Assembly (NCBI GenBank): GCA_934276635.1
Contig: CAKQTH010000003.1
Coordinates: 3,063-67,062, forward strand
Direction of reading: 5' to 3'
Source of the DNA: an uncultured Alphaproteobacteria bacterium
GTDB lineage: Bacteria > Pseudomonadota > Alphaproteobacteria > RF32 > CAG-239
Length of the DNA: 64,000 nucleotides
Shown here in pieces: positions 36,695 to 60,494 of the stretch. A model generated the notes under the pieces. The model was not told the DNA's origin, searched no databases, and saw nothing but the letters and a program-made list of their open reading frames with translations. The number at the start of each line of letters is the position of its first letter. Position 1 is the stretch's first letter. Made by a program: the position numbers and the translations under genes.

Positions 36695-37663
36695 CTAAGT
36701 AACTTCGGTAATGGCACGCAGGTTGCCGTCGCGGTTGATTTGCACGACTCTCAATTTGTGATGCATTTCCTCAATCGTTCTCTTTCTGTCAATCGTCGGA
36801 TATGTATGCAAAATACGATCGGTAAACGCCTTGTACGCAGCCTCGGAACTTTCGGCGTGGATTGTGGCTAAACAGTTATCGTGGCCTGATCCCATAAGCT
36901 CCCAAATTGCACCTGCGTTTGATGTTGAAATCTCGCCTCCGATAATTGCATCAGGCGTAAAACGAACCACAAGGTCGATGATTTTGCTGTAATCCATTTG
37001 GTTGGTTTGTTCGGTACGAGACAAAACTAAATGCACACGATTGGGGTGCGGAACCAAAAGCTCGCGTGTATCTTCAATCGTCAAAATGCGCTTATTGATA
37101 TTGATAATTTTCAAAAGGTTGTTCAAAAAGGTTGTTTTACCGGTAGAAGTTGCACCTGAAACCAAAATATGATCGCCTCGTTTTAAACTTAAAATAAGCC
37201 TTTCGTACGGATCTTCCGGATCGGCAATCTGTTTCAACGGATTAATCTTGTGCAATGCCTGCCCCTGCGCCAAACCATAATCCTGCAATCCGAATGCAAC
37301 ATCATCGCTGTGAATACGAATTGTAAGCGCGATACCGCCGGTAACATCTTCCTGATCATACATCACATTTCGGCCGGCAATGGCAGAAAAACGGTGTTCA
37401 CCCGGGATTGTGGCGTATACCACCGGCGAGCCCTGTATCGGGTCAAACGGAAGTTCGTATGTGTTTGCCACAATATAAAGCAAGTCAGTCAGATATTCTT
37501 TGGAGAGCTTTTCATCATTGTAGGCAACCCACGGATACGCTCTTTTTCCGCGCAGGCGCAACCATATCTGTCCGCCGTGATTTATCGCAACTTCCTCGAT
37601 ATTGTCCTGATTATACCAATATGCCAACGGCCTTAAAACTGATTCCAATACTGCAAAGCTCAT
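36695..37663 (-). CDS. virB11: Type IV secretion ATPase VirB11
   Basis: 322 aa with Walker A GATSTGKTT, Asp box RILTIEDTRE, Walker B PDAIIGGE and His box GHDNCLATIHA. Last gene of the T4SS operon. Confidence 0.93.
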   Translation of the reverse strand: MSFAVLESVLRPLAYWYNQDNIEEVAINHGGQIWLRLRGKRAYPWVAYNDEKLSKEYLTDLLYIVANTYELPFDPIQGSPVVYATIPGEHRFSAIAGRNVMYDQEDVTGGIALTIRIHSDDVAFGLQDYGLAQGQALHKINPLKQIADPEDPYERLILSLKRGDHILVSGATSTGKTTFLNNLLKIININKRILTIEDTRELLVPHPNRVHLVLSRTEQTNQMDYSKIIDLVVRFTPDAIIGGEISTSNAGAIWELMGSGHDNCLATIHAESSEAAYKAFTDRILHTYPTIDRKRTIEEMHHKLRVVQINRDGNLRAITEVT

Positions 37664-37675
37664 ATTTTCTTCCTT

Positions 37676-40600
37676 TTAGAATAATTGGGGAACTCCACCG
37701 TCTCCTGAAGACTGATCGTCAGAATAGGTTGTGTTTCCGGTATCATACGACGGCGGCGGGGGCGGAGGTGTGCCGATTGGACTTGTGGTAACCGGAGGAA
37801 TGGTTGTCGGAGAAGACGATCTTGCTTTTGACGAGTTATCTTCAAGCAACGGTATTGACTTTTGCGCCTGAACGCCGTCAACCGAACCTTCTTCATATAC
37901 GACTTTTCCTGCCGCGTCTCCGCCGCCTCCGGATACGCCGTTAATATTTATACCCTTATCGTTTGCTGTTCTTTCTGCCTGAGTTTTATCGTCATCAATA
38001 AGGATTTTAGGCTTTTGATTTTTAGCCGTTGCTTCAGCCGCATTATCGATTGTGCGCAACCACAAATCCACATTCGGATATACAATAATTCTGGTACCCG
38101 CTGGGACATAGGTCAACGGTTTAATATCCATCGCATCTTGCATAATCTGGTTAAATACCTGCTTCATACTGTCTTGAAAATCTTCACGCGAATCATTCAT
38201 TGCCTGCTGTCGCGAACTTTCAACCCCGTCGGTTCCCGACTCGTCTGTCGCAAACATCATGGATATGGCACTGGTAAGAGTGGTCGTAATAATCGGTGCA
38301 GAATATTTTTTAAGCAACTGCTTATCAAGATATCCGAGCGCTCCGCCGCGGCCCTGCGCATCTCCGGTAATTCCCTGAAGCTTAAAGGTAGAGCCGTCCG
38401 GACGAATAAGTCTGTCCCATGTAATCTGAACTTTTGCAGAGTTAGACATCTGCTCTTCTCCCGCGGTCAATCCGCCGAGCGTTCCGATAAATCTGCTGCC
38501 CGCCGGAATCAACACATTGCGGCCTTCTTCGGCATACACATTTCTTTCAACAAACGCGGTAACCGGAGTCGGGTTGCTGCTATCAATCGAGCGCGCCAAT
38601 ACTGCCGGAATCGGCTTATCGGCCAGAATCATCTCGCTCATATCAACACGCCAGCTTGAAATATTCTTTTCGATGCCCAAATCAGTCCAGTCTTTTTGTT
38701 TGCCGTCAAATGTGCTTGCGTCTATACCTGTGCTGATTTTGCGCACCGACATCGCCTGACGACGCTCATTTTGAGCCGCAGAGAGCGCGGCAGCGCGTTG
38801 GGCGTTATATCTTTCACCCGGACCGTATCCGCCGCCGGGTCCCAAATTTCCGACGCCGGTTCCGGTACCATAAGCTCCTCCGTCACCGAAAGTTCCGGCC
38901 GGAACAAATATATCCTGCCCTTTCGGACGCTTGACTTCTTCGATACCGATAAGGTTTCCGTCGTTATCAATAATCAGTCCGTCCGGCATCTTTTTTCCGA
39001 TAAGAGAGCCGTCTCTGCTGACAACATCGCCGTTATCCATAATATTTCCGAGATAATCACCGTCCGGTGTCAACGCAATCCCGATAACACGGCGGCTGAA
39101 TCCGCTGACTTCTTTTTCATCATCCTGCTGATTTGATTCGTTTGCGCCGATATTGACAGTCGTGCTCGGCTTTTTTGCTTTCGGCGAATAATATTGCAGC
39201 AAATACGGAACTCCGACGACTTTTCCGTCAGAAGATTTAACCTTGCCGTCTTGCGCAAGAGTACCGATTAAGACATTGTCGGTATTATACAATTTTCCGG
39301 AGATTCCGAGCTCGCCGACCGAAATTCCGTTTGCACCGCGAACCCAATAATCTCGATTTATTCTTCCGATTAATTTGTCTTTTTCGTTGAGCAAAAAGCC
39401 CTGATCAATCGTGCCTAATACATTTTTGGAAAAACTTCTGACTTTGCCGTCTTTTTCAATATATCCGATTGCTTTCCAACTGTCGTCATAAACATAAAGG
39501 TCATATGCGGCATAGCCGATTTTTTCTCTTTTATCAACAACATAACCTTCATAATCAACTCGTCCAACATCTTCATTTTTGTTGTTGATTACCCTGCCGC
39601 TTTCCAGAACGCGTCCCAAGAAAGCATTGTTGTTGTCAAAAGCATAGCGATAGCGGAACAAGCGGCCAATGACATCTCCTTCCGGCGATACCACGGTTTC
39701 ATCAAGCGAAACTCTGCCGATAACTTTGCTGTCATCATCAACCACCGAACCATCAAAAACGCTGCGGCCGATAATTTTTCCGGAAAAGTCCATTACCGGG
39801 CGATAACGAAGGGACGATGCAATCATCTTTCCGTCATCATCTTTCAGATATCCGCGGATATCCACACACCCGAGCTTAGTATTGTTCAAACTGAACGCAA
39901 AGCCGCTGACCGACGGAGTTGCGAAAATCGCATTTTTATTATCTGTCAGCAAATTGGGCAAAACTCTGTATCCGGCGACGGCTCCGCCTTCCGAAACGAC
40001 CTGTCCGTTTTGCAATATATTGCCGACTACCGAATTTTTATAGTTTCTGACATCTCCGCGCGGAGTCACAACACCCAAAAATGTGCATTTTTCATCAACA
40101 ACCACGCCCGGTTCCAAAAGCTCGCCCTGAACGGCGCCGGTTGCGTCTATCATCACGCCACCATCCGAAATTTTTCCGATAATGCTTTTTTCTTTATCAA
40201 AAACAGAGCCTGTTTCTTCAACATATCCGACAAACGATCCGTTTGAGGCAATGACCATATCGGCCGAAAACGCATTACCGATTTTCGGAGAAATCGTATT
40301 TGTTATATTTTCATCGGAGGCCGATACCGACATATCCGGCAGAATTTTTGCAACGGCTTTTTGCGCGGAATTCAGCACAAGATTGTTTTCGGAAATTGCG
40401 CCGAGAATATCTCCGCTGCGGTTGATAACATATTGTGCATTAATGTTTTTTCCACGAATCTGCTTTCCGTCAATATTGGCATATCCGTATTGCAGCACAT
40501 CGGCAATTTTTGCGTATTTGTCGTTCAAAACTTCGGCATTCGGCGAAATATATCCGAATACGGAACCGGACAAATCATACGCCGCGCCGAGAGGAATTGC

Positions 40601-41905
40601 CGAACCGGAAATTATTCCGTCAGAGCCGTAAACATATCCGAACGGCGATACAAAGTTGCGGTCAAGCCCTTTGATATATTCCGAAATTCCGTTCATTCCG
40701 ATTGCGCGGTTGTTTTTATCGACAATCAGCTGCTCGTAAGCCGTTGCGCCGACAATCTCTCCGACATTATTAAACACTTTGTTTCCGCTGATGCGTCCCA
40801 TTGCCGAGCCGTCAAGAGAGATAACCGCTCCGCCTTTGGTCGCATGAGCAATAAGTCTGGCTCGATAATCAAACACCGGTCCGGAGTTGATAACTTTTCC
40901 GGCAATCTGCCCTGCGGAATTAAGCATATTACCGCGGGCGGAAACCGCTCCTATAATTTCTTTTGCTTTGGCGATTTTTCCTTCCGGCATAAGTCTTCCG
41001 ACATAATTTCCCTGCAAATCGGATATTGTGGCGGCAATATCAACAAAAAATCCGATAACTTCCTGCTGTTCATTCACAATTCTATCATCAAAGCGCATAT
41101 GCCCGACAACCGCATTGTCCTTAACCACATCGCCATTATAGCTTACAAAACCGAGATATTGTCCGTTGTCGGATATTGCATAACCGTTTTTAACGATACG
41201 ACCGATGATTTTTCCTTCTTCATTATAGGCGTATCCGTTTGCATGAATGCTTCCAATAATATTTGAATCAAAGTCCGTAACTTTACCGCCGAGCGCCACG
41301 CTGCCGATAAATTGTCCGTTTTGCGAAATTACCATTTTTGAAGAAATAAGCTTTCCGTCAACAACATAGCTGTCGCCGTTTCGTTTGTAGGCATATCCGT
41401 CTGCCGAAACAAAACCGATAACTTTTCCTTCCAGATTTGTATAATTTCCGTCACCGGTCAAGCGCCCTATTGTTTTGCCTTCATCGGAATATACCAACCC
41501 AGGGAACAAAACCGCACCGATAATGTCATATTTGTCATCAATGGCAAGACCGCTCGGCAAAACTCTGCCGGCAGATTTGCCAGAAGACAGGCGCACCGAA
41601 CCGTCATTATTAACTTTTCCGAGCATTTTGTTGTCATTTCCGATAACAATACCTTGCGGAATAACGCCGCCGATAAGCTCGCCTTTTTCATTTATAATAA
41701 AGCTGTCCGCGTTTACATTGCCAATAAGTTCATTATCAAAGCTGACGACTTTTCCGTCCGGAATAACTTTTCCGAGCAGGTCGCCGTTAAAATCAATAGC
41801 CGTAATTTCCTGCGCCGATGCATTTGACATTGCGGCAAAAGGCAGCACCAAGGCCGTCAGGGCAATTATTTTTATGTTTTTTATTATCTTACTTATGGCA
41901 ACCAC
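37676..41905 (-). CDS. virB10: Giant VirB10-like protein (1409 aa): Sec signal peptide, ~950 aa of short repeats, Gly-rich linker, TrbI/VirB10 core, Pro-rich C-terminal tail
   Basis: GTG start at 41905 with GGAGGA 8 nt upstream. The signal peptide is MVAISKIIKNIKIIALTALVLPFAAMSNASA/QE. The VirB10 core lies at about 38055-38670 (…SSWRVDMSEMILADKPIPAVLARSIDS…VLIPAGSRFIGTLG…ITWDRLIRPDGSTFKLQGITGDAQGRGGALGYLDKQ…YVPAGTRIIVYPNVDLWL). The tail is …TTIPPVTTSPIGTPPPPPPSYD…. Confidence 0.88.
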   Translation of the reverse strand: MVAISKIIKNIKIIALTALVLPFAAMSNASAQEITAIDFNGDLLGKVIPDGKVVSFDNELIGNVNADSFIINEKGELIGGVIPQGIVIGNDNKMLGKVNNDGSVRLSSGKSAGRVLPSGLAIDDKYDIIGAVLFPGLVYSDEGKTIGRLTGDGNYTNLEGKVIGFVSADGYAYKRNGDSYVVDGKLISSKMVISQNGQFIGSVALGGKVTDFDSNIIGSIHANGYAYNEEGKIIGRIVKNGYAISDNGQYLGFVSYNGDVVKDNAVVGHMRFDDRIVNEQQEVIGFFVDIAATISDLQGNYVGRLMPEGKIAKAKEIIGAVSARGNMLNSAGQIAGKVINSGPVFDYRARLIAHATKGGAVISLDGSAMGRISGNKVFNNVGEIVGATAYEQLIVDKNNRAIGMNGISEYIKGLDRNFVSPFGYVYGSDGIISGSAIPLGAAYDLSGSVFGYISPNAEVLNDKYAKIADVLQYGYANIDGKQIRGKNINAQYVINRSGDILGAISENNLVLNSAQKAVAKILPDMSVSASDENITNTISPKIGNAFSADMVIASNGSFVGYVEETGSVFDKEKSIIGKISDGGVMIDATGAVQGELLEPGVVVDEKCTFLGVVTPRGDVRNYKNSVVGNILQNGQVVSEGGAVAGYRVLPNLLTDNKNAIFATPSVSGFAFSLNNTKLGCVDIRGYLKDDDGKMIASSLRYRPVMDFSGKIIGRSVFDGSVVDDDSKVIGRVSLDETVVSPEGDVIGRLFRYRYAFDNNNAFLGRVLESGRVINNKNEDVGRVDYEGYVVDKREKIGYAAYDLYVYDDSWKAIGYIEKDGKVRSFSKNVLGTIDQGFLLNEKDKLIGRINRDYWVRGANGISVGELGISGKLYNTDNVLIGTLAQDGKVKSSDGKVVGVPYLLQYYSPKAKKPSTTVNIGANESNQQDDEKEVSGFSRRVIGIALTPDGDYLGNIMDNGDVVSRDGSLIGKKMPDGLIIDNDGNLIGIEEVKRPKGQDIFVPAGTFGDGGAYGTGTGVGNLGPGGGYGPGERYNAQRAAALSAAQNERRQAMSVRKISTGIDASTFDGKQKDWTDLGIEKNISSWRVDMSEMILADKPIPAVLARSIDSSNPTPVTAFVERNVYAEEGRNVLIPAGSRFIGTLGGLTAGEEQMSNSAKVQITWDRLIRPDGSTFKLQGITGDAQGRGGALGYLDKQLLKKYSAPIITTTLTSAISMMFATDESGTDGVESSRQQAMNDSREDFQDSMKQVFNQIMQDAMDIKPLTYVPAGTRIIVYPNVDLWLRTIDNAAEATAKNQKPKILIDDDKTQAERTANDKGININGVSGGGGDAAGKVVYEEGSVDGVQAQKSIPLLEDNSSKARSSSPTTIPPVTTSPIGTPPPPPPSYDTGNTTYSDDQSSGDGGVPQLF
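38945..41790 (-). repeat. Coding array of degenerate ~15-20-aa repeats (h-x-x-D-G-x-V-h-D-x-x-G-x-h-I-G-x-h) in the VirB10-like protein
   Basis: Visible in the translation, e.g. DGKVVSFDNELIGNVNADSFIINEKGELIGGVIPQGIVIGNDNKMLGKVNNDGSV…. The array ends at …PDGLIIDNDGNLIGIEEVKRPKG. Confidence 0.85.
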
Positions 41906-47756: not shown

Positions 47757-47945
47757 CTATAATGTTTCAACAAACCAATCAGGAAGAGAATTTATAAGCT
47801 CTACCTGCATACAAGCGCACGGAGAAAGTTTAAGTTCGTTAAGCGCACGGCCAACGCCTACCGGTTCGCTTTCATAATATGAACCGAAAAGCGAACAAGA
47901 AGTCAAACCAAGCACCAGAACTAAAAGAAATACCTTCTTAAACAT
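47757..47945 (-). CDS. virB7: VirB7-like small lipoprotein (62 aa)
   Basis: I start it at ATG 47945: MFKKVFLLVLVLGLTSC, a lipobox with Cys. Its small size and position between the two virB8 genes match the rvh layout. No sequence-family check was possible. Confidence 0.6.
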   Translation of the reverse strand: MFKKVFLLVLVLGLTSCSLFGSYYESEPVGVGRALNELKLSPCACMQVELINSLPDWFVETL

Positions 47946-53561: not shown

Positions 53562-54890
53562 CTAGAATTGTTCGGATATTGACGATGCCGTATCTTTTGC
53601 GGAATCTATCCCGCTTTTTACATCCGATACCGCGTTTTTAACACCGCTCACACTGAGTTTTTTCTTGCTTTTCTTAATCCCTTGAGCATCTTTTTTCGTA
53701 AAGATGTAATCATCAAAGTTAAAGTTCTCTTTGTGCTGATATTCGTATGGCATATTAATCATGTCATTGGCGGTCATCATCTTTAAATCTGCCGACATCA
53801 ACTTGATATAATCAAGCAAAATATGCATAATCTGAACCCTGATGCCCGAAGTTTCAATCAACAACGCGCCGGTCTGGCTGTCTGTCTCTATAACGCTCTT
53901 TTTTAGCTCATCTAAAGTTTTTTCGTTGGATTCTATATTATTTTTAATGCGCAGCGCATCAATGTAAGCATTCAAGGTATCTTCACCGGCTGCTTTTTTA
54001 CGATTGTTGCTGATTTGCGAGAGCAAATCTCCGCCGACCGGATTTCCTTCCGCAATAAAGTTCTTTTCCGCAGCCTCGCCATATCCGCCGTCGCCGCCGC
54101 TGAGCATTCCTGCCAATTTATCAACCGCTTTGTTTCCGACATCTTTTCCTTTTGACAGTGCCTTCTGAGACAACTTTTCAACTTCTTGTTCCTTGAGCTT
54201 TATATCTTCTTTTGCAGTGCTTTTCTGCTGTTCAAAAGACTGATACTTCTCCGACCGCTCGATTGCTCCCTTTTCGCTCTCAAGCTCCGCAATAGAGGCA
54301 TTATTTTTTTCCATCTGAGCCTTACGGAATTCAGCGTCCTCATCTTCTCCCATTCTTGAAAGAGTATTGTTGTTGTCTTCAAGAACCTTAATTTGCGCGT
54401 CTATTCTTTGTTTTTCGGAAGAAACATAATCGCTCTGTTCTTTTTCAAGCTTGGTCAACGCATCTTTGGATTCTTTCAAAGTTGCCACAGCCTCGGCCTG
54501 CTTTTTCGCATCTTCAGCCTTATCTTTTGCATTTTTTGCATCACTGAGTGCTCCGCTTGCGGTATTTTTCGCATCGCTGACTACCTGTTTTGCATCATCA
54601 ACCGTCTTTTTTACATCGTCAATTTTTTCTTTTGTATTCTTATAAAATTCTTTGGCCTTTTTGATTTTTTCAGAAGATTCCATGGCTCCTTTTAGGCCTT
54701 TTTTTATGGTCTGATATTTTTCAGCAATCGGCTCAACAACTTTTTGCACATTTTCCGAAGCCTTTGTAACAAAGTCCGAAATTTTTCCGGCCGCACGCCC
54801 GAAATCGATATTAATCATCGCAGATGACGGGGTTGCAAAAACCATGCACACTAAAAACAAAACAGCAGCAATAACTCTCAGCTTTTTCAT
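53562..54890 (-). CDS. Secreted helix-rich, Lys/Glu-rich protein (442 aa)
   Basis: Signal peptide MKKLRVIAAVLFLVCMVFATPSSA with GAGGAGG upstream. A heptad-like charged sequence runs through most of its length. Confidence 0.85.
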   Translation of the reverse strand: MKKLRVIAAVLFLVCMVFATPSSAMINIDFGRAAGKISDFVTKASENVQKVVEPIAEKYQTIKKGLKGAMESSEKIKKAKEFYKNTKEKIDDVKKTVDDAKQVVSDAKNTASGALSDAKNAKDKAEDAKKQAEAVATLKESKDALTKLEKEQSDYVSSEKQRIDAQIKVLEDNNNTLSRMGEDEDAEFRKAQMEKNNASIAELESEKGAIERSEKYQSFEQQKSTAKEDIKLKEQEVEKLSQKALSKGKDVGNKAVDKLAGMLSGGDGGYGEAAEKNFIAEGNPVGGDLLSQISNNRKKAAGEDTLNAYIDALRIKNNIESNEKTLDELKKSVIETDSQTGALLIETSGIRVQIMHILLDYIKLMSADLKMMTANDMINMPYEYQHKENFNFDDYIFTKKDAQGIKKSKKKLSVSGVKNAVSDVKSGIDSAKDTASSISEQF

Positions 54891-54892: not shown

Positions 54893-55588
54893 TTATTCCT
54901 CCTCTTTGTCCTTAGAACCATATTTTTCGGAATCCGCGATTATATAAAAATTATATATTTGTGCTTCGGTTGAAACAATATAGTTCAATCGTCTGATAAT
55001 CGACCGAATACGCGGCCCCTGCGCATCAACCGCTTCTTTCATATTATTTATGGTTGCCGGTTTTGATTTGGCCTCTTCTTCGGCATCGTCCAAAAGCTCA
55101 TTGCGGCGCACAAATGCCGATGCATACATATTTGCGGCCATATTTCTTTTCAGCTCATTGAACATATCCATTTTTTCCTGATATTGCTCAGATGTAATAT
55201 CTTCCGGAAAAACATATTTTTCTTCCAAATTATTTTCAAAATCGTTGCTGTTTATGACAGACCCCAAACCTGACATAAGCTGTGTTCCGGCCGCTTTCGG
55301 ATCTTTTGCCAGCTCATAAGCGCTTTTACCCTTTTCGGCCAAATCTTTGCCTTTTTCATAGGCGCTTTTTCCTTTATCAATCCCTTCTTTGGCAATATCC
55401 GTAACAGCGGTAACCTGATTGATGTTTTCTTGCACGGTAGAAACGACTTCTTCTTTGAATGCCGAAGCTTTTTCCATATATCCTTCAACTTTTTCAACAA
55501 CAAAATTCAGCGAATCCGGCATTGGGATTTGCGCATTTGCCGAACCGGCCGCCAGAATCATCAAAAACGCAACAACATATTTATTCAT
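54893..55588 (-). CDS. Secreted helical protein (231 aa), VirB5-size
   Basis: I start it at ATG 55588 (AAGGAGG upstream), which overlaps the upstream stop by 8 nt. Signal peptide MNKYVVAFLMILAAGSANA/QIPMPDS…. Confidence 0.8.
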   Translation of the reverse strand: MNKYVVAFLMILAAGSANAQIPMPDSLNFVVEKVEGYMEKASAFKEEVVSTVQENINQVTAVTDIAKEGIDKGKSAYEKGKDLAEKGKSAYELAKDPKAAGTQLMSGLGSVINSNDFENNLEEKYVFPEDITSEQYQEKMDMFNELKRNMAANMYASAFVRRNELLDDAEEEAKSKPATINNMKEAVDAQGPRIRSIIRRLNYIVSTEAQIYNFYIIADSEKYGSKDKEEE

Positions 55589-56255
55589 TATTGCTTCCTC
55601 CTTCTTCGACCAGCTCTTTGATATATGAAGCATCATATGCCGACAAATATTTCAAAGCCTTATTCATAATTTCGGTTGACAATACTTTGTTCAAATGGCT
55701 GTTCAGCACAATTGCAAAATCATAATCCGCCTCAGCCAAAACCGCAATATCCTCACGAATATTGGCCGCGCCGTTTTCGTTTCCTTCTTCACCGCTTTTG
55801 TTGTCCGAAAGATTGATTCCGAGCATTGAGCCGGAACCGATATCACCGAGTGCGCCCAAAGCGGAATCGCTGTCTCCGTTTCCTTTTTCTTCAAATTCTT
55901 TAACTACGGTATCTTCAAAATTTGAGGCATAAATCCCTTCAGCAACCATTGTTTTCAAGGTTTCCAGCTTGCTTTGCGCCGCCATTTCCGTAAAAGTTTC
56001 GCCGACGCTCCTCGAGCTTTCCACCGTATCATTTCTGTCTTTAAGCAGCTTAGAGAGACACTCTTTTGTAGCCTTTGCCGCTTCATCGGTATCCTGCATC
56101 TTGATTTTGCAGCTTTCCGCCATAATTTTCGGAATTATATAATCACCGTTGGCGGCCATTCCGGTTGCAACATTTGATGCGCCGCTGATATCGGTGTCTG
56201 CGGCGCTTGCAGCTGCGGCAATCAGAAATGTCATTAAAAAAGCCGAATATTTCAT
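55581..56255 (-). CDS. Secreted helical protein (224 aa), VirB5-size, paralogous to the C-terminal part of the 476-aa protein
   Basis: Signal peptide MKYSAFLMTFLIAAAASA. GDYIIPKIMAESCKIKMQDTDEAAKATKECLSKLLKD aligns without gaps to GNIILPKSLAAYCEMTIDEVEKDTDRLEECLKKVLAK in the 476-aa protein, with 11 of 37 residues identical including both Cys. Confidence 0.8.
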   Translation of the reverse strand: MKYSAFLMTFLIAAAASAADTDISGASNVATGMAANGDYIIPKIMAESCKIKMQDTDEAAKATKECLSKLLKDRNDTVESSRSVGETFTEMAAQSKLETLKTMVAEGIYASNFEDTVVKEFEEKGNGDSDSALGALGDIGSGSMLGINLSDNKSGEEGNENGAANIREDIAVLAEADYDFAIVLNSHLNKVLSTEIMNKALKYLSAYDASYIKELVEEGGSNNE

Positions 56256-56276: not shown

Positions 56277-57707
56277 TTATTTTTCTTCAAAAACAAAATC
56301 TTCTATGCCGTCAAGCTCGTTATATCGGCCGTAAATCGTGCGCAGCCAAACATAATCGTTTGCAACTTTCGCCATTTCTATCGCCTGATGCGCCGAAACT
56401 GTCATACTACTGCGGACTTCCGTTGCCCCATCTGCGGCCTCCTGCAAATCGGCTATAACTTTTTCCTCATAGTTTGCCGCCTTATTTGCCGCTTTAACAA
56501 TCATACTCATCGCGCCGAAAGTGTTGTCTTTGCGAAACTCCAAAAGCTCATCGGTAGAAACGCCTGCTTCCGTGCTGCCGTCTTCGCTTTCCTTTGCCAA
56601 AACTTTTTTGAGGCATTCCTCAAGCCTGTCAGTATCTTTTTCCACTTCATCAATCGTCATCTCGCAATAAGCCGCCAAAGATTTCGGAAGAATAATATTT
56701 CCGTTGCCGGCGCGGCCGGTTTTAAGCTTTGACTGTTTTTCCGTGGTCTCGAGCAAGTCTGCCGACGCAATCACACTCTTTTGTTCGTAAAAAAAAATAT
56801 ATTCATCGGCGGAAGATTGTTTTTGCATTTTTCTGAACGCTTTTTTTTCGGACACCGGCGCCACCGATTTTACATTTGCTTTAGCATCGGAAAGAGCCGG
56901 ACTTTTAGCGACCGTGGCCCTATCCAAAGCTGCAGGTTTTGCCTCTTGTGCGGCTTTGAGCCCACCGGCGGCATCTGCTTTCGGCATAGCCTTAGGTTCT
57001 GAAATTGCTGAAACATTTTCTTTTTGCGCAGCCGGAGCTTTGAGCGTCTTATCGGCAGAAACCGGCGCTACCTGCATCACATTATTCGGTCTGTTTTTCA
57101 AAAACTTATTGCTTGCCGCCGGCTGAAGTTCTTCAACGGAATTGTCGCTTTCATCTTCTTCCTGCTCTACTTCTTCGGCAGTTGCTTCATCATCTTCCGG
57201 CGGGGTCAAAAGCTCATCGCCTTCCGCCAGATCATTTGCGCCGTAACTTTTTTCGGCAGAGCTGAACAGTGATTTATTTTCATCTTTATCCGCAAGAATA
57301 CCGGCTCTTTCCTGCGCCATTTTAACGCCGTCTTCCGTAGCATCTTTAAGAGCCTTTGCTTTTTCTACCTGAGCCTCGGCAAAACCTTTGTATTCTTCAT
57401 ATTGTTCTTTGTATTCCTCAGCCTGTTTTCTCATTTTTTCAACTTCGGCCATTTGATCTTTTGCCTCATTTGTAAATTTTGAAACCGTACTGACGGCATC
57501 ACCGATGCTGGAACTAACTTTTGCGACCGTTTTGGTTGTTTCCACAATAACTTTGCTCGACTTAATTTGCTCAATACCGCTCTTTATGGCCTGTACGATA
57601 GATGAAGTATCAAGCGTCGGAAGAGGAATAAACGCATAAGATTTCGGAGCAAAAAGTATTGTTGCCAAAACAACAACTGAACTGAAATATAAAGCGGTCT
57701 TCTTCAT
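56277..57707 (-). CDS. Secreted helical protein (476 aa) with a VirB5/TrbJ-like mature N-terminus
   Basis: I start it at ATG 57707 (GGGAGAA upstream). Signal peptide MKKTALYFSSVVVLATILFAPKSYA/FIPLPTLDTSSIVQAIKSGIEQIKSS. It has an acidic, Ala-rich middle region, and its C-terminal module is shared with the 224-aa protein. Confidence 0.8.
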   Translation of the reverse strand: MKKTALYFSSVVVLATILFAPKSYAFIPLPTLDTSSIVQAIKSGIEQIKSSKVIVETTKTVAKVSSSIGDAVSTVSKFTNEAKDQMAEVEKMRKQAEEYKEQYEEYKGFAEAQVEKAKALKDATEDGVKMAQERAGILADKDENKSLFSSAEKSYGANDLAEGDELLTPPEDDEATAEEVEQEEDESDNSVEELQPAASNKFLKNRPNNVMQVAPVSADKTLKAPAAQKENVSAISEPKAMPKADAAGGLKAAQEAKPAALDRATVAKSPALSDAKANVKSVAPVSEKKAFRKMQKQSSADEYIFFYEQKSVIASADLLETTEKQSKLKTGRAGNGNIILPKSLAAYCEMTIDEVEKDTDRLEECLKKVLAKESEDGSTEAGVSTDELLEFRKDNTFGAMSMIVKAANKAANYEEKVIADLQEAADGATEVRSSMTVSAHQAIEMAKVANDYVWLRTIYGRYNELDGIEDFVFEEK

Positions 57708-57784
57708 TTTGTTTCTCCCAAAAGCATCAGATGATAAATAATAACATACAAAATATCTTTGATAAAGATTTTTTTGCAAAATCG

Positions 57785-60214
57785 CTACAAATTTAAATAT
57801 TTTGTAACAAAGTTCTCTTCTCCGTATTCCTTAATCAGCTGTTCAACCAGCAAAACATTTTTTCGGCTGGAGTTGTAGAGCCTCAAATACGGTCCCAAAC
57901 CACCGAGGTTTACATCAAGAATCACGGATTCGCCGGTTGCCGGTCTTGAAAGCAAAATCGCATACGGAAAATCGCGATATGTCTTACCGAAAATAAAATC
58001 CATTTCGTTTTGCGTCAGATTCCAAGTCACATAATCTTCCAATCTGGCTTGCGGGTTGCGGAAGAATAAAACGGTCTGACATTGTCCGCGAATAACCTCG
58101 CCGACGCCGAGTTTGTCAATAACATTCGGCTGTTGAAATGCGCAAAGATATGACTGGCGTTTTTTACGGCCTTCTTGCAAACCGATAATAAAGTAATCTC
58201 TAAACATCGGGTGCTTAAGCATCGGCGCCGTTTCATCGATCATAATCAGAGACGGAACGCCGGTTTCGCCGGTTTCGCTTTGAATTCGGTGCATAATATA
58301 TGAAATAACCGCCGGAGCCAAGGTGTCGTCCTCAAAAATATGCGTAAAGTCAAATGCCATAAATCTTTTTGCCTTCAAGTCCAAACTATCGGTTTCGGCA
58401 TTAAAAATGTTTCCGTATTGATCCGGATTAACCCAGCGATACAATTCCCGTCTCATATTTCCGGTCGGTGAAAAACAGCTTTTATAAAGATTTTTCATAA
58501 CTCTTTCTTCCGGACGCAGATAGTCAAACGCGGTTGTAACCGCTCGCGCGATTTCCTTTTCGGACAATGCGTCGTCAACCATTGTGATAGACTTCATCCA
58601 GCGACGCAAAAATGCGCGGTTGTTCGGCGTATCTTCGGCATCAAACGGGTTAAGCGACACATTTTTTTCGTCGCCGTCAAACCCGATATACGCTCCGCCG
58701 ATTGAACGAGTAAAGATTTCAGCACCGCGGTGGCGGTCAAAGAAGAACACTTTCAAATCGCCGTGGCGCATCGCCTGTCCGGCCAAAAATGTAAGCAAAG
58801 TAGTTTTACCTTGTCCGGTAGGACCGATAATACAGCAGTGAGCAACGGCAGCTTCTTCGGCAGATACATGGAATTGGAACTGATAGGCTGAACCGGAAGT
58901 TGTTCTGAACACGCTGATTGCGCCCGGACCCCAGTCGGATTTCGAAAAACCTTCTGACGGTTTGTCAAAGCATATGGCCATTGCCACAACGCGGGACAAA
59001 TAGCGATATGTTCTCGGATATGTTTCATAAGTCGGAAACTGTGCAAAAAATGTTGCCTGAGCAACCCAGCCCTCACGAACCGGCGTCACACCGAACAAAC
59101 GGCAGATTCTCTGCACTTCACTTTCGGCAAAATCGATTTCTTCTTTGCTCGAACCTCTCAATATAATAGACATAGAATATTCGACCAGAGCCTGATAATC
59201 GGCGTCGCTGTCCTCAATTGAAGACAAAGCCTGCGCATATTGGCCGATAACCTCGTCCGAAAAGCTTGTAATGGTCGCCATTCTCTGTTGTTGCATCAAA
59301 AGCATACGCGCCTGAGCCTTAAAAATCGGCTTTACATTGTGCAAAAGCACCATTTCGCTGTCAATCGAAAGCAGCGAAACTATCATACTTTCGTCCATAT
59401 AATCGCCCGATGTTCTGATACCCATACAAATTTCGTACATTTCTTTATCGCCGGAGAAAAATCTGATAACTCCGTTTTCTCCGGTAAAATGAATATGATC
59501 AGCAGTCAAAAGCTCATTAAACGCGGCGCCTTCGGCTTTTCCGACCTTAGGTTCCGGATTGGAAAGCGGGCTGCAAAGCTTTGAAAAGATATACAGAGGG
59601 CTTTCGGTTGCCGGACTGTCAACCGTTTCATAAAGATTTTTCACTCCGTAATCGTTCAATGTCGCAAGTAGCGCCTGAGATGCATAGTTCAAGTCTTTTA
59701 AGGCATCTTTTCGGTCTTCAATAGACAAGATGATGTAGTGGCGGTTATGATAAATTCTATCCAGATTGGCATCCCAAGTTGCCGAAACTTCTTCCAAAAC
59801 CTTATTATTAAAGTCGCCACCGTCAACATTGTTCGGGATTCTTTCTCTGAGCGTAACAACGCGGCAGATAACCTGCAAATCCGACATACCGTCAATCCAA
59901 GATTTGCGGGCTTCCATCATTGAATAAATTTTTTCTTCGGTTGCAAACGACAAATCCGCACCTTCAACCTTAAACACGCGGGCAAATGCACCGTTTTTGC
60001 ACCTGATGGTGATTCCGTCCGACATCAGCCTGAAAAACGGCAAAAAGTCCGAAACGCGGGATTCTCTCGGCTGCGGCAACACCCAAGCTCCGAATCTTGT
60101 TGCCCACAAAACCGCAAAAGCAGATGCCGAAACAAATCCGATTACGGCAATCATAACCTCGAGGTTGGTTAACCCTTGTGTAAAAATACTGAAAAAATCA
60201 AAATTAGGGCTCAA
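57785..60214 (-). CDS. virB4: Type IV secretion ATPase VirB4
   Basis: 809 aa with Walker A IIGPTGQGKTT and Walker B …SLIMIDETAP…. Overlaps virB3 by 11 nt. Confidence 0.93.
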   Translation of the reverse strand: MSPNFDFFSIFTQGLTNLEVMIAVIGFVSASAFAVLWATRFGAWVLPQPRESRVSDFLPFFRLMSDGITIRCKNGAFARVFKVEGADLSFATEEKIYSMMEARKSWIDGMSDLQVICRVVTLRERIPNNVDGGDFNNKVLEEVSATWDANLDRIYHNRHYIILSIEDRKDALKDLNYASQALLATLNDYGVKNLYETVDSPATESPLYIFSKLCSPLSNPEPKVGKAEGAAFNELLTADHIHFTGENGVIRFFSGDKEMYEICMGIRTSGDYMDESMIVSLLSIDSEMVLLHNVKPIFKAQARMLLMQQQRMATITSFSDEVIGQYAQALSSIEDSDADYQALVEYSMSIILRGSSKEEIDFAESEVQRICRLFGVTPVREGWVAQATFFAQFPTYETYPRTYRYLSRVVAMAICFDKPSEGFSKSDWGPGAISVFRTTSGSAYQFQFHVSAEEAAVAHCCIIGPTGQGKTTLLTFLAGQAMRHGDLKVFFFDRHRGAEIFTRSIGGAYIGFDGDEKNVSLNPFDAEDTPNNRAFLRRWMKSITMVDDALSEKEIARAVTTAFDYLRPEERVMKNLYKSCFSPTGNMRRELYRWVNPDQYGNIFNAETDSLDLKAKRFMAFDFTHIFEDDTLAPAVISYIMHRIQSETGETGVPSLIMIDETAPMLKHPMFRDYFIIGLQEGRKKRQSYLCAFQQPNVIDKLGVGEVIRGQCQTVLFFRNPQARLEDYVTWNLTQNEMDFIFGKTYRDFPYAILLSRPATGESVILDVNLGGLGPYLRLYNSSRKNVLLVEQLIKEYGEENFVTKYLNL

Positions 60215-60494
60215 ATTTATTCCCCTTCTGTTTGTATAGGTTAGTAGATGTTTTGTTTGTTTGCCCGTAGGCCTGAATCATTGCGGAAAGGTGAGGCTCT
60301 TTGGTTCCGGCCATAATACACAGACAGTGGCCGAGCACGATTGTCACCATAAACATAAGCGGGTTTATATTAAACGCTCCGACGCAAATGAACATAAAAG
60401 GAAACTGCAGACCCAAATTCAACAAGGTCGGCAGGAAAGGCCCCCATAATATTTTCGGAGGATTTGCTACGGCTTTCAGTATCATTTCGTGCAT
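60204..60494 (-). CDS. virB3: VirB3-like small inner-membrane protein (96 aa)
   Basis: Two hydrophobic helices, the right size, and a position immediately upstream of and overlapping virB4. AGAGGG lies upstream of the ATG. Confidence 0.75.
   Translation of the reverse strand: MHEMILKAVANPPKILWGPFLPTLLNLGLQFPFMFICVGAFNINPLMFMVTIVLGHCLCIMAGTKEPHLSAMIQAYGQTNKTSTNLYKQKGNKFEP

Follow-up and report, generated by a model that had tools for sequence, protein, structure and literature searches.

The window, a stretch of 64,000 nucleotides from an uncultured alphaproteobacterium, carries an unbroken array of 14 closely spaced minus-strand genes at positions 36695-60494 (Table 1). All 14 open reading frames are intact. 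With the starts of public gene calls (476, 224, 231 and 442 aa for these genes of the variable block between virB4 and virB8a), the distances between neighbouring genes range from -11 to 21 nt, apart from two wider gaps: virB4 is separated from the 476-aa gene by 77 nt, and virB8a from virB7 by about 114-150 nt. The original prediction had described this tight packing with its two exceptions of 77 nt and about 115-150 nt correctly, and also the co-directional array, of which it counted fifteen genes; the ORF listing, like the prediction's own list, gives 14. As proposed, a terminator-like hairpin with a 15-bp stem (60592-60560), called by a consensus scan only, lies behind rbfA and putatively delimits the operon on the upstream side. 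The surroundings are chromosomal housekeeping genes. The ten largest open reading frames of 22-36.7 kb are of this type according to Pfam, and at 1-22 kb the size and layout of the ORFs suggest genes for ribosomal proteins and RNA polymerase. The observation is real: this is an intact, very unusual chromosomal vir-like type IV secretion system (T4SS) gene cluster in a single array. The identities given to VirB3, VirB4, VirB7, both VirB8, VirB9, VirB10 and VirB11 are all confirmed by Pfam, NCBIfam, BLASTP or the lipobox, and the order B8-B7-B8-B9-B10-B11 holds as well.

Table 1. Genes of the array and the hairpin at its upstream side (window positions).
Feature	Position	Strand	Description	Evidence
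Terminator-like hairpin	60560..60592	-	15-pair stem then T run, 3' of rbfA	
virB3	60204..60494	-	96 aa, two hydrophobic helices	BLASTP, hydropathy
virB4	57785..60214	-	ATPase, 809 aa	TIGR00929, CagE_TrbE_VirB
VirB5-like paralog 1	56277..57707	-	476 aa, family g1	g1 profile against Erythrobacter VirB5
Signal-peptide protein	55581..56255	-	224 aa, stand-alone C-terminal module of paralog 1	BLASTP
VirB5-like paralog	54893..55588	-	231 aa, family g2	g2 family profile
VirB5-like paralog	53562..54890	-	442 aa, family g3, coiled-coil middle	g3 profile
Giant protein	48852..53549	-	1565 aa, last of variable block	hhalign, AF2
virB8a	48093..48842	-	249 aa, divergent VirB8 paralog	Pfam VirB8
virB7-like	47757..47978	-	lipoprotein, 62-73 aa, lipobox LTSC	lipobox, BLASTP
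virB8b	46988..47740	-	250 aa, conservative VirB8 paralog	Pfam VirB8
virB9	45339..46976	-	545 aa, Gly/Gln-rich linker, C-terminal SPOR	CagX, SPOR
Bfl	41908..45342	-	1144 aa	Bflower_2, ASH, hydropathy
virB10	37676..41905	-	1409 aa	TrbI, Bflower_2
virB11	36695..37663	-	ATPase, 322 aa	TIGR02788, T2SSE

VirB4 (TIGR00929, E = 3e-111; CagE_TrbE_VirB, E = 2e-13) shares 78-83% identity with its counterparts in the top 80 of at least 249 related stretches and 38% with the VirB4 of a Microvirga plasmid; VirB11 (TIGR02788, E = 1e-40; T2SSE, E = 5e-22) is 76-92% identical in gut metagenome loci and 42% identical to plasmid VirB11s. The Pfam search gave zero matches for VirB3 and VirB7. With BLASTP, VirB3 matches the annotated VirB3 of the Microvirga plasmid pMVF16-3 (E = 5e-10), and its identity is 51-80% across 79 related loci. 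VirB7 matches small plasmid genes directly 5' of virB8 in Erythrobacter (E = 1e-11) and Microvirga (E = 6e-10); this place is the VirB7 position. The two VirB8 paralogs are recognized by Pfam (virB8a, E = 2e-13; virB8b, E = 3e-21) and are 28% and 34% identical to the Microvirga VirB8, respectively. virB8a was found in 68 related loci with 40-59% identity; virB8b has its closest PDB relatives (E = 2e-5) in 4MEI and 4KZ1, two entries titled 'VirB8 protein' that we take to be the Bartonella VirB8. VirB9 (CagX, E = 2e-11; 36% identity to the Erythrobacter VirB9) is indeed fused to a SPOR domain, as predicted (residues 465-543, 22.3 bits at a cutoff of 21). This tail is near-invariant among relatives, and there are weak indications that a SPOR-like tail may be common to the plasmid clade too.

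The predicted giant repeat-bearing VirB10 and the second repeat protein are both recovered as beta-flower proteins. VirB10 starts with a cleavable-looking signal peptide, directly followed by 'AQEITAIDFNGDL', which is kept in relatives. The beta-flower repeats, about 56 hairpins, make up the first ~1000 residues (Bflower_2, E = 2e-52); a Gly-rich linker connects them to the TrbI domain (residues 1093-1283, E = 7e-37; 35% identity to plasmid VirB10s), behind which comes a Pro-rich tail. Bfl (Bflower_2, E = 6e-70; ASH, 27 bits) starts with a short cytoplasmic tail and a single transmembrane helix and continues with an ASH/Ig-like domain and about 54 hairpins of 17 aa each; its N-terminus 'MSKE.LTHSE.YIKKTNRIIL' is kept in relatives. 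Only 2 nt separate the two genes, whose proteins share the 17-aa repeat unit and have complementary architectures. The N-terminus of Bfl aligns collinearly with the N-termini of plasmid VirB10s in hhalign (34% probability, E = 4e-4), and an HMM of this N-terminus found no match in the plasmid VirB10s. Statistically weak as these data are, they suggest that a single beta-flower-filled VirB10 has been divided into Bfl and the 1409-aa protein.

All five proteins encoded between virB4 and virB8 carry an N-terminal signal peptide and lack an internal hydrophobic helix. The original prediction was right in these properties. It saw in them non-canonical, soluble-looking proteins in the VirB6 slot and stated that VirB5 is missing, which is probably wrong. 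The 476-aa protein has an 'IPxPTLD' motif behind its signal peptide; its middle is variable and of low complexity, and its C-terminus forms a VirB5-like module. The profile of its family, g1, matches with its N- and C-terminal parts the Erythrobacter plasmid VirB5, a member of PF07996 (E = 3.7e-7), and the g3 profile matches the same protein (E = 2.5e-10) and a Microvirga protein at the VirB5 position (E = 2e-5), again collinearly. In hhalign against the alignment of plasmid VirB5s, g1 reaches 70% and g3 52% probability. The g1 and g3 matches to the Erythrobacter VirB5 are collinear at both ends and were the sole matches among 508 control ORFs; they score 21-31 bits versus a maximum of 6.9 bits for shuffled decoys. 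In the reverse direction, an HMM of the plasmid VirB5s matches seven helical proteins of the lineage (E = 4e-6 to 4e-5). Pfam and NCBIfam make no direct VirB5 call on the five proteins, PDB profile searches with the VirB5-like proteins gave coiled-coil noise only, and direct hhalign comparison with VirB5 yields 5-10% for g2 and 5-14% for g2 and the giant protein together. The five proteins are interlinked at 86-97% (hhalign): g2 and g3 C-termini at 97%, g1 and g2 C-termini at 86%, and the N-terminus of the giant protein with g2 at 96% and with g1 at 92%. The 231-aa protein matches the g2 profile with E = 1.4e-45, a non-independent value since the protein is part of the profile; its all-helical AF2 model is of low confidence (pLDDT 40) and unusable. 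The 224-aa protein matches residues 350-451 of the 500-aa ORF containing the 476-aa protein (BLASTP, E = 2e-6) and the C-termini of g1 proteins in relatives. The g1 C-terminus aligns at 99.5% with family c4, of which the 224-aa protein may be a member; it shares a BLASTP match with one c4-sized protein. Judged by these profile comparisons, the five proteins form one superfamily remotely linked to bona fide PF07996 VirB5, and the supposed VirB6 slot is therefore probably an expanded VirB5 slot. In species pairs with 97-99% identical VirB4 the VirB5-like genes are only 67-75% identical and thus diverge about 10 times faster; this could also reflect low constraint on coiled coils instead of surface exposure.

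The giant protein is composed of a VirB5-like N-terminal module (residues ~1-280), a variable linker and a lineage-specific extension of ~1130 aa. Some relatives encode the N-terminal module separately, as gene c8 (hhalign 100%). Among 1.84 billion representatives the extension has 240 homologous clusters, and the best 150 of these are mostly 1200-1850 aa long, with some shorter and apparently partial ones. AF2 (pLDDT 75, pTM 0.73) predicts an alpha/beta domain and, besides helical bundles, a long coiled-coil hairpin. Foldseek found no match at E <= 1e-3 in PDB or BFVD; the helical part resembles ClyA-type tripartite pore-forming toxins (AhlB, SmhB, MakA) non-significantly (E ~0.2, probability 0.6-0.8).

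Hundreds of uncultured alphaproteobacterial species from the gut keep the cluster in their chromosomes. Our search of species-representative genomes recovered at least 249 stretches with the array, conserved gene by gene and beyond what chance would give, and about 50 metagenome loci retain B9-Bfl-B10-B11. The variable block comprises 3-7 genes, and its last gene has 1200-1654 aa in every scorable locus. In agreement with the prediction of an uncharacterised system, our literature search found no paper which describes or characterises the locus.

As claimed, VirB1, VirB2, VirB6, VirD4, a relaxase and an integrase were not found in the window (at 22-36.7 kb among the ten largest ORFs), and, in line with the view that the locus does not look like a conjugative element, no conjugation genes lie near it. 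We found no att-like boundary at the locus and no VirD4 or MobA/L homologs in the window or in 2.4 Mb of related loci (about 140 loci, +/-10 kb around VirB4 or VirB11). The missing VirB2 and VirB6 are, however, no trait of the system. In 68 of 80 related loci TrbC/VirB2 genes, in two to four paralogs, lie directly 5' of virB3, and relatives encode a VirB6-M23 peptidase fusion (M23+TrbL/VirB6) in a convergent cluster after virB11. Their absence here thus points to a rearrangement in this species. Searches for VirB2 and VirB6 in the source species did not find them, so that a working pilus is here assumed from the relatives.

The ancestry is clearly conjugative and lies in the canonical T4SS clade of alphaproteobacterial megaplasmids. 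Among annotated systems, those nearest to the locus are the canonical conjugative T4SSs carried by plasmids of Microvirga, Erythrobacter, Sphingosinicella and Paracaedimonas (identities: VirB4 30-38%, VirB11 36-42%, VirB9 30-36%, VirB10 30-35%). Their gene order is B2-B3-B4-B5-B6-B7-B8-B9-B10-B11-D4 plus a MobA/L relaxase, with virD4 following virB11 directly or two small genes later.

Our analysis moderately favours a domesticated, conjugation-derived T4SS which assembles a variable pilus or adhesion structure on the cell surface. In this reading, a P-type (VirB-like) T4SS descended from the megaplasmid clade, became domesticated and is now kept vertically on the chromosome, with the locus as its core operon. 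Coupling protein and relaxase would have lost their linkage to the operon, VirB8 would have been duplicated with the copies flanking VirB7, and VirB5 would have expanded into four to six signal-peptide paralogs, the last of which gained a fibrous and globular extension of ~1100-1300 aa. VirB10 may have gained about 110 beta-flower hairpins and been split into an inner-membrane-anchored N-terminal half (Bfl) and a Sec-exported C-terminal half with the TrbI outer-membrane domain, and VirB9 carries a peptidoglycan-binding SPOR tail. VirB4 and VirB11 could then power the assembly of a VirB2 pilus or stalk, with the pilin genes and the VirB6-M23 fusion presumably elsewhere in the genome of the source species. 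The Sec-exported VirB5-like paralogs would cap the structure at its tip and act there as exchangeable adhesin or contact modules exposed on the surface, and beta-flower arrays, SPOR tail and M23 domain could form an enlarged scaffold engaging peptidoglycan. Instead of transferring DNA, the machine would let the cell attach to or contact host mucus, cells of the host or other microbes.

Alternatively, the locus could encode an effector-translocating T4SS, bacteria-killing like the Xanthomonas X-T4SS or host-targeting like rvh or the Brucella VirB system, with coupling protein and effectors encoded elsewhere and the VirB5-like paralogs as structural tip variants or immunity/recognition factors. 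Both ATPases are intact, as is the complete outer-membrane core, and all of these parts are strongly conserved; since VirB2 and VirB6 appear already unlinked from the operon in the source species, VirD4 could likewise be encoded apart from it. Targets would be plentiful in a gut community, and rvh of basal free-living Rickettsiales has been proposed to kill congeners (PMC11077975). We nevertheless consider this unlikely: no VirD4 homolog turned up within +/-10 kb of VirB4 or VirB11 in the surveyed loci, virD4 stands close behind virB11 in the ancestral plasmid clade, no effector/immunity gene pairs were seen adjoining the locus, and the strongest lineage-specific innovation concerns Sec-exported, tip-type proteins.

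It is less probable still that the four to six signal-peptide proteins are the cargo of a two-step, VirD4-independent exporter of the Bordetella Ptl type, which would be exported by Sec, assemble in the periplasm and leave through the VirB7/9/10 channel as toxins or adhesins. All five proteins have a Sec signal peptide and no membrane anchor, no VirD4 is nearby, and the cargo genes would lie inside the operon, similar to the linkage of ptx and ptl in Bordetella; the resemblance to ClyA-type toxins would also fit. This resemblance is, however, non-significant, and VirB5, to which the proteins are related, is a structural pilus-tip subunit and Sec-dependent too. The several VirB2 pilin genes retained in relatives argue for a pilus. 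Most improbable appears a DNA uptake or release system, similar to ComB or to the gonococcal GGI, or the decaying remnant of an integrated conjugative element, now without function. The conjugative ancestry would fit, NCBIfam matches the VirB10 domain best to ComB10 (E = 5e-32), and to our knowledge ComB systems lack VirD4. But the ComB10 match reaches 111 bits at a cutoff of 300, barely above the VirB10 match, relaxase, integrase and att-like boundary are missing, and the intact reading frames together with the wide conservation of the array and of VirB4 argue against decay. ComB systems, as far as we know, have no VirB11 either, whereas the locus keeps a well-conserved one.

The original prediction took the array for two fused islands of the Rickettsiales vir homolog (rvh) system. 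This is not supported: the nearest annotated systems are the plasmid T4SSs, and several rvh hallmarks (multicopy VirB6 after B4, a second VirB9, the absence of VirB5 and VirD4 after B11) do not apply here. The likeness we propose is with the Trw system of Bartonella: the machine would likewise be a variable surface pilus or adhesion machine. Trw is without VirD4, has amplified its trwL (VirB2) and trwJ (VirB5) genes and mediates adhesion to erythrocytes.

The locus is a type IV secretion system (T4SS) by every core criterion and hence not a new kind of machine. It encodes the parts expected of a P-type (VirB-like, MPF-T) system, namely the VirB4 ATPase, the VirB7/VirB9/VirB10 outer-membrane core complex as well as VirB3, VirB8 and VirB11; the VirB6 channel subunit and the VirB2 pilin were found neither in the window nor in the 10 kb past its right edge. 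Domain searches identify VirB11 (T2SSE, E = 5e-22, Pfam; TIGR02788, E = 1e-40, NCBIfam), VirB10 (TrbI domain at residues 1093-1283, E = 7e-37, Pfam), VirB9 (CagX, E = 2e-11, Pfam), two copies of VirB8 (E = 3e-21 and 2e-13, Pfam) and VirB4 (TIGR00929, E = 3e-111; PF03135, E = 2e-13). At the C-terminus of VirB9 a SPOR domain narrowly passes the Pfam threshold (22.3 bits vs 21). The scores of VirB4, VirB8, VirB9, VirB10 and VirB11 are far under the NCBIfam equivalog cutoffs; the system is thus divergent. VirB3 and the VirB7-like lipoprotein have no Pfam match. VirB3 matches the annotated VirB3 of a related plasmid (BLASTP, E = 5e-10), and the lipoprotein, which carries the lipobox LTSC, matches a small plasmid gene just 5' of virB8, that is, at the VirB7 position (BLASTP, E = 1e-11).

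The long open reading frames of the array follow each other without a break. As start codons we used the public gene calls for identical proteins (476, 224, 231 and 442 aa). For the beta-flower repeat protein encoded between virB9 and virB10, here called Bfl, the start MSKE... was taken from the N-termini conserved in relatives, which gives 1144 aa. With these starts the spacing ranges from overlaps to 21 nt, apart from two wider gaps, one of 77 nt behind virB4 and one of about 114-150 nt that separates virB8a from virB7. The packing and gap sizes of the original prediction agree with this listing; its total of 15 genes has to be corrected to 14, the number given both by its own list and by our recount. 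A promoter scan returned sites that were no commoner than in shuffled sequence.

The array sits among housekeeping genes. The ten largest ORFs between 22 and 36.7 kb of the window are housekeeping genes by Pfam, and this region includes genes for a HemN-like protein, KsgA, SurA, LptD, LptF/G, glycogen synthase, TsaD and an ADP-dependent sugar kinase. To judge from the size and arrangement of the ORFs, the first 22 kb seem to contain genes for ribosomal proteins and RNA polymerase. A strong terminator-like hairpin lies 3' of rbfA. At the other end the kinase gene and virB11 converge so closely that there is no space for terminators between the two units. The 10 kb past the right edge, an extension via infB, contain no T4SS genes. 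The coordinates are collected in the table, together with two ORFs without Pfam match and a protein without Pfam family beyond the right edge, which we note as side observations.

Coordinates of the features discussed, in the window or in the other stretches named
Feature	Stretch	Position	Strand	Remarks
ORF without Pfam match (E <= 1e-5)	window	22354-23253	+	300 aa; amid annotated housekeeping genes
ORF without Pfam match (E <= 1e-5)	window	34213-35298	+	362 aa; amid annotated housekeeping genes
ADP-dependent sugar kinase gene	window	35301-36692	+	converges on virB11; stop codons 2 nt apart
virB11	window	36695-37663	-	
T4SS array	window	36695-60494	-	virB3, virB4, five signal-peptide proteins (476, 224, 231, 442, 1565 aa), virB8a, virB7, virB8b, virB9, Bfl, virB10, virB11
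Tandem DNA repeats inside the Bfl gene	window	44242-44636		51-nt and 153-nt repeats, 70-84% identical; encode near-identical hairpins, VMPDGTVVDKDGNVIGK three times
virB8a-virB7-virB8b	window	48842-46988	-	
776-aa protein	L152, window's own contig beyond the right edge	3351-5681	opposite	about 8 kb past the edge, in a region of SecE/NusG and housekeeping genes; devoid of Pfam family, signal peptide and transmembrane helix
VirB5 encoded right after virB4	L149, Erythrobacter plasmid	22496-23248		full-length PF07996 member
Hypothetical protein two genes after the VirB5-position gene	L148, Microvirga plasmid	23932-25215		428 aa
Protein with TrbC/VirB2-like segment	L046, related locus	5003-9547		upstream of virB3
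Protein with TrbC/VirB2-like segment	L003, related locus	6672-9506		upstream of virB3
Type IVb-pilus-like genes	L030, related locus	1697-8469	opposite	TcpQ, secretin, PilO accessory protein; adjoin the VirB2 genes
Convergent cluster downstream of virB11	L125, related locus	11003-20965		also in related loci L083, L116 and L124

The five proteins encoded between virB4 and virB8 each carry a signal peptide and no further hydrophobic helix. Pfam and NCBIfam return only coiled-coil noise for them, and neither the five nor 59 family members match the VirB5 family PF07996 (Pfam), even at E <= 1. We clustered 326 proteins of this variable block and derived family profiles, g1 from the family of the 476-aa protein, g2 from that of the 231-aa protein, g3 from that of the 442-aa protein and one from that of the giant 1565-aa protein. 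On the Erythrobacter plasmid the g1 and g3 profiles match the product of the gene right behind virB4, with E = 3.7e-7 and 2.5e-10, respectively, in two collinear pieces, one N-terminal and one C-terminal. This plasmid protein is a full-length member of PF07996 (30.3 bits vs a cutoff of 24.7). Following the signal peptide the g1 consensus reads AqiPTlDisaia and the Erythrobacter protein AGIPVIDPTAIA, so that the motif AqIPTlD pairs with AGIPVID of the Erythrobacter VirB5. The control set consisted of 508 ORFs, those of the remaining window and of three plasmid loci; in it the VirB5-position proteins were the sole matches, and 200 shuffles with the signal peptide kept reached at most 6.9 bits as compared to 21-31 bits for the real matches. 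Reciprocally, an HMM of the three plasmid VirB5-position proteins matches seven of the helical proteins of the lineage (E = 4e-6 to 4e-5) and, among the 508 control ORFs, nothing but its three source proteins and a second gene of the Microvirga plasmid.

The other families are connected with g1 and g3 by hhalign: g2 and g3 through their C-terminal parts (97%), g1 and g3 through their N-terminal parts (97%), g2 with the N-terminus of the giant (96%), g1 with the same region (92%), and g1 with g2 C-terminally (86%). The 224-aa protein corresponds to the C-terminal module of g1, encoded on its own (BLASTP, E = 2e-6). The VirB5 link of g2, the 224-aa protein and the giant runs via other families (hhalign 86-97%); compared directly to VirB5 with hhalign, g1 reaches 70% and g3 52%, and g2 as well as the giant lie at 5-14%. 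Alignments of g1 and g2 searched against the PDB return coiled-coil noise only, and the true Erythrobacter VirB5 likewise matches nothing there, so a PDB profile search is blind to VirB5. From a shallow alignment, AF2 models the 231-aa protein as all-helical with a pLDDT of 40, too low for comparing it with the three-helix bundle and globular appendage of VirB5; the searches for homologous proteins yield few sequences (6, 4 and 3), and low-complexity words swamp the matching. Judged from these sequence relationships, the five helical proteins are probably VirB5-derived paralogs. The earlier view that the locus lacks VirB5 and fills the VirB6 slot with soluble-looking helical proteins probably does not hold, as a PF07996 member is matched by g1 and g3 and the reciprocal HMM agrees.

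Two further observations concern this gene set. The 428-aa hypothetical protein of the Microvirga plasmid matches the VirB5 HMM with its C-terminal module (E = 2e-7), and by its sequence the VirB5 duplication may be older than the gut lineage. In the related loci L018, L022, L023, L028, L035 and L045, variants with a six-gene block, gene fission and fusion are seen in the VirB5-like set: the giant has about 1200-1250 aa and its N-terminal module is encoded separately, and the first gene is likewise split into two genes for proteins of about 310 and 340 aa.

The giant starts with a VirB5-like module of about 280 residues which in some relatives is encoded by a separate gene of 220-260 aa just upstream (family c8, hhalign 100%). 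For the remaining approximately 1130 residues there are 240 homologous clusters among 1.84 billion representatives, and the best 150 of these 240 are mostly 1200-1850 aa long, some being shorter and apparently partial. The AF2 model, computed from a 52-sequence alignment (pLDDT 75, pTM 0.73), consists of helical bundles, a two-helix hairpin (helices of roughly 90 and 55 residues), an alpha/beta domain at about residues 1165-1360 of the protein and a helical bundle at the C-terminus. Neither PDB nor BFVD yielded a Foldseek match to this model at E <= 1e-3. The top non-significant matches are SMC/JetC arms and subunits of ClyA-type pore-forming toxins; at E > 1e-3 we set a kinship to either aside as coiled-coil resemblance. 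We also rejected a huge VirB6 like Anaplasma VirB6-4 because the giant has no transmembrane helix past its signal peptide.

The VirB5-like proteins evolve rapidly. In species pairs whose VirB4 proteins are 97-99% identical, the giant is 75%, g3 71% and g2 67% identical; at a VirB4 identity of 92-95% these values drop to 58%, 56% and 50%. Protein divergence is thus roughly tenfold faster than in the motor. Parts that are exposed on the surface and diversify under pressure would behave in this way; relaxed constraint on coiled coils is another possible cause.

In Bfl and in the first approximately 1000 residues of VirB10 a 17-aa beta-hairpin with the beta-flower fold is repeated in arrays (Bflower_2, E = 6e-70 and 2e-52). 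This fold (PF21785) was first described without known function; its proteins have been given a cell-wall-binding annotation and are similar to lipid-binding Tubby domains (PMC10584680). Bfl begins with a conserved cytoplasmic tail of 25 residues (MSKE.LTHSE.YIKKTNRIIL) and one transmembrane helix, followed by an ASH/Ig-like domain with a Cys pair (27 bits) and about 54 hairpins. In VirB10 the signal peptide is followed by about 56 hairpins and, past a Gly-rich linker, by the TrbI domain. Relatives retain the motif AQEITAIDFNGDL directly after the signal peptide, a conservation that suggests cleavage of VirB10, presumably at ASA|QE. In contrast, the VirB10 proteins of the Erythrobacter and Microvirga plasmids are single proteins of 529 and 590 aa with cytoplasmic tail, transmembrane helix, Cys-pair domain, linker and TrbI domain; they are membrane-anchored and have no beta-flower repeats. 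The VirB10 of Paracaedimonas has 345 aa and a lipoprotein-like start.

The genes for Bfl and VirB10 are 2 nt apart and share a common repeat unit, and among species the proteins vary in length (Bfl 1102-1636 aa, VirB10 1397-1729 aa). With hhalign the N-terminus of Bfl aligns collinearly and weakly to the N-termini of the plasmid VirB10 proteins (34%, E = 4e-4); an HMM of the Bfl N-terminus gave no match to the plasmid VirB10 proteins. We give an even chance to the idea that a single repeat-expanded VirB10 was split into an inner-membrane half (Bfl) and an outer-membrane half (VirB10). By topology both beta-flower arrays should be periplasmic. Together with the SPOR domain of VirB9 and the M23 domain of VirB6 (see below), the arrays point to a remodelled periplasmic part which would engage peptidoglycan. 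As a separate observation, the tandem DNA repeats inside the Bfl gene are a possible recombination substrate for altering the repeat number.

VirB4 relatives were found in 249 stretches of the species-representative genome collection, and the best 80 of these 249, with 78-83% identity, were retained as loci. The genomes are nearly all titled uncultured Alphaproteobacteria or Proteobacteria and the isolate names are mostly gut or faecal; among them are CAG:495, Candidatus Scatocola and UMGS63, obtained from humans, chickens, rabbits and ruminants. NCBI places Ca. Scatocola in Rhodospirillales incertae sedis; in GTDB the order is presumably RF32. The window's own species is present in human gut metagenomes including those of the Hadza, on contigs of up to 128 kb. 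In the relatives B3-B4 is followed by the variable block and then by B8-B7-B8. The block comprises three to seven genes, mostly four or six, and its last gene codes for a product of 1200-1654 aa in every scorable locus. VirB9, the repeat protein, VirB10 and VirB11 are encoded in that order in about 50 metagenome loci. The surroundings vary; the relatives lack rbfA and infB upstream and the sugar-kinase gene downstream.

The relatives also supply the components that are missing in the window. Two to four TrbC/VirB2 genes lie upstream of virB3 in 68 of the 80 loci, in some immediately before virB3 as in L030, where the Pfam matches to TrbC have E values of 2e-10 and 7e-7, and in others 1-3 kb away (L046). 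Downstream of virB11 the relatives, including those whose VirB11 is 92% identical to that of the window, carry a convergent gene cluster. Several of its products belong to no family. It encodes an XRE-type regulator with two HTH_3 matches, a membrane protein (215 aa), a lipoprotein (444 aa), a protein of 179 aa, an acidic repeat protein of 693-1004 aa without family and further polytopic proteins. Among the latter is a polytopic protein of 757-1002 aa; the one example scanned, the 1002-aa protein of L125, combines Peptidase_M23 (E = 3e-11) with TrbL/VirB6 (E = 8e-7). Homologs of the relatives' VirB2 or downstream-cluster genes are found neither in the window nor in the 10 kb past its right edge. 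Since VirB2 and VirB6-M23 adjoin the locus in relatives, they are part of the system, and their absence in the window represents a rearrangement in this species; the lack of VirB2 and VirB6 that had originally been noted for the window is no trait of the system itself. From its sequence it is plausible that the M23 domain replaces the missing VirB1 lytic transglycosylase.

Some of these upstream regions are unusual. In several relatives, among them L046 and L003, signal-peptide proteins of 944-1514 aa contain in their central part a TrbC/VirB2-like segment that consists of two hydrophobic helices. They adjoin ordinary VirB2 paralogs of 110-150 aa and, judged by sequence, would represent giant pilin fusions. 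In L030 Type IVb-pilus-like genes adjoin the VirB2 genes on the opposite strand, and L001 and L003 have ORFs there that are like them in size and layout, the likeness being one of size and layout only. Two surface-filament systems may be linked in the lineage.

To trace the ancestry of the locus, VirB4 was compared by tblastn with 72,556 plasmids, of which megaplasmids match best. Identity is 38% to Microvirga sp. VF16 (pMVF16-3), 34.6% to a Sphingosinicella sp. plasmid, 34.5% to Erythrobacter aureus (YH-07 plasmid), 30% to plasmids of Ca. Paracaedimonas acanthamoebae and about 25% to the classical Agrobacterium and Rhizobium proteins. For each core part the most similar sequences found are those of alphaproteobacterial megaplasmid T4SSs (VirB4 30-38%, VirB11 36-42%, VirB9 30-36%, the TrbI part of VirB10 30-35%, VirB8 27-34%); counterparts of VirB7 and VirB3 are detectable and the core gene order is as in the window. 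The Erythrobacter and Microvirga plasmids carry canonical conjugative sets, MobA/L ... B2-B3-B4-B5-(B6)-B7-B8-B9-B10-B11-D4, with two small genes between B11 and D4 in Microvirga. The Paracaedimonas plasmid has an equal T4SS layout by homology, although its genes are annotated as hypothetical; the record is typed MOBQ, and the stretch read contains no VirD4 gene. The C-terminal tail of VirB9 has one weak match in the plasmid clade (E = 0.025), where Pfam reports no SPOR domain; as judged by sequence this tail may be common to the plasmid clade and the window. Because every core protein has a counterpart of 27-42% identity in the megaplasmid clade, we read the locus as a chromosomal derivative of that clade. 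It differs from the megaplasmid systems, which have one VirB8 and VirB2 right before VirB3, by its two VirB8 and the absence of VirB2 from the window. Whereas VirD4 follows VirB11 and a MobA/L relaxase is present on the Erythrobacter and Microvirga plasmids, these are absent or rearranged here, in a chromosomal housekeeping setting.

A fused Rickettsiales vir homolog (rvh) system had been proposed instead. The rvh system is characterized by duplicated VirB4, VirB8 and VirB9, VirB7 lying between the two VirB8 copies, by five polytopic VirB6 after B3-B4, by VirD4 after VirB11 and by the lack of VirB5 (PMC2653234, PMC11077975). Of these hallmarks the window shares the order virB8a-virB7-virB8b, followed by B9-B10-B11. 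Otherwise there is one VirB4 and one VirB9 at the locus, the genes after virB4 are VirB5-related and their products have no internal transmembrane helices, and virB11 abuts the convergent ADP-dependent kinase gene. Searched against the PDB by sequence, the VirB8 copies have no Rickettsia VirB8 structure among their matches; the best match is 4MEI, presumably the VirB8 of Bartonella. We therefore reject the fused-island part of the original prediction and retain its B8-B7-B8-B9-B10-B11 order, as the further rvh hallmarks are lacking at the locus and the nearest relatives found are the non-rickettsial, conjugative megaplasmid T4SSs. The rvh system and the locus are both chromosomal and kept across their lineage. 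VirB2 is multiplied in the rvh system of Anaplasmataceae, as it is here in the relatives.

What does the system do? By analogy to Bartonella Trw, we lean slightly towards a domesticated T4SS whose pilus or surface structure would bear a variable set of VirB5-derived tip proteins and serve adhesion or contact. Within this proposal we are rather confident of the identity statements and hold the function in adhesion or contact, which rests on analogy, tentatively. Alternatively, the machine could translocate effectors with the help of an unlinked VirD4. No homologs of the plasmid VirD4 or MobA/L relaxase were found in the window or in the related loci (about 140 loci, +/-10 kb around VirB4 or VirB11, 2.4 Mb in all), and we regard such a translocator as unlikely. 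The signal peptides of the operon-encoded proteins would suit a two-step exporter like Ptl of Bordetella with these proteins as its cargo. We consider this export quite improbable. DNA uptake or release, or a decaying ICE, is very improbable. The flanks are housekeeping genes, there is no tRNA gene in the window, and MobA/L and VirD4 are missing from the window and the 2.4 Mb of related loci.

For the domesticated T4SS we suggest the following architecture. The two halves of VirB10 would be re-joined in the periplasm by their beta-flower arrays, each with about 55 hairpins. At 14-fold symmetry, hundreds of beta-flower domains could thereby form a cage that engages peptidoglycan or lipid. The four to six fast-diversifying VirB5-derived proteins would form an interchangeable tip complex, one of them being a fibre of 1200-1850 aa with a globular head of unknown fold, and this complex might serve as the lineage's main contact device for host mucosa, partner or prey cells. 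That all of this applies jointly, a lineage-specific T4SS-derived surface organelle with a split VirB10 re-joined by beta-flower arrays and a VirB5-derived tip as main contact device, is doubtful.

In the literature on RF32, CAG-495 and CAG-239 with T4SS we found no published description of the system. Most of the genes that had been called non-canonical fall into known families; the combination is unusual, as had been claimed, and it is the combination that is novel: an apparently split VirB10 with beta-flower repeats, a VirB5-like gene family that includes a giant, VirB9-SPOR, VirB6-M23, VirB2 fusions and no nearby VirD4 or relaxase. This combination is conserved throughout a large uncultured lineage of medical relevance. 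The bacteria, which have never been cultured, are frequent in the guts of humans and animals (contigs of Hadza, Brazilian, rabbit, chicken and ruminant origin). The 24-kb machine is intact in at least 249 species and adjoins translation genes in the window; it is probably central to the lifestyle of these bacteria. If the joint proposal is true, a prevalent uncultured order of gut alphaproteobacteria has a surface organelle of its own with a design unseen in any studied T4SS. For the T4SS field the locus is instructive in several respects: VirB10 possibly works as two polypeptides, beta-flower domains are set in a defined machine, peptidoglycan handling is shifted to VirB9 (SPOR) and VirB6 (M23) instead of VirB1, and VirB5 has diversified into a family evolving about ten times faster than the motor.

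Several known systems share single aspects with the locus. CagY of H. pylori is a giant VirB10 with helical, Cys-containing repeats N-terminal to the VirB10 domain, and their number varies between strains. The window's VirB10 is likewise enlarged several-fold by repeats N-terminal to the TrbI/VirB10 domain and varies in length. Its repeats, however, are 17-aa beta-flower hairpins which also occur in a second, membrane-anchored protein, and it begins with a signal peptide. VirD4 is also absent from Bordetella Ptl, which has no VirB5 and carries unrelated toxin genes at its locus, and from H. pylori ComB, which is devoid of VirB11 and VirB5. As in the window there is no coupling protein at these loci and substrates or parts arrive by Sec, but neither has a repeat-bearing VirB10 or an expanded VirB5.

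Trw is one of three T4SSs of Bartonella (PMC4676284). Our comparison with Trw, the model for the proposed adhesion function, is one of gene content. Trw is derived from a conjugation system, has no linked coupling protein and has amplified near-identical trwL and trwJ-I-H cassettes, the VirB2 and VirB5 genes among them coding for surface parts that vary. The locus described here is likewise conjugation-derived, has no linked coupling protein and has multiplied VirB5 genes as well as, in the relatives only, VirB2 genes. In contrast to Trw, the VirB5-like paralogs of the window are ancient, with 20-30% identity, varied sizes and a giant fusion, and VirB6 and VirB7 were not amplified along with them. 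The gut lineage would offer a second, independent case of a repurposed conjugation system, by which it becomes directly testable which T4SS parts are dispensable or replaceable.
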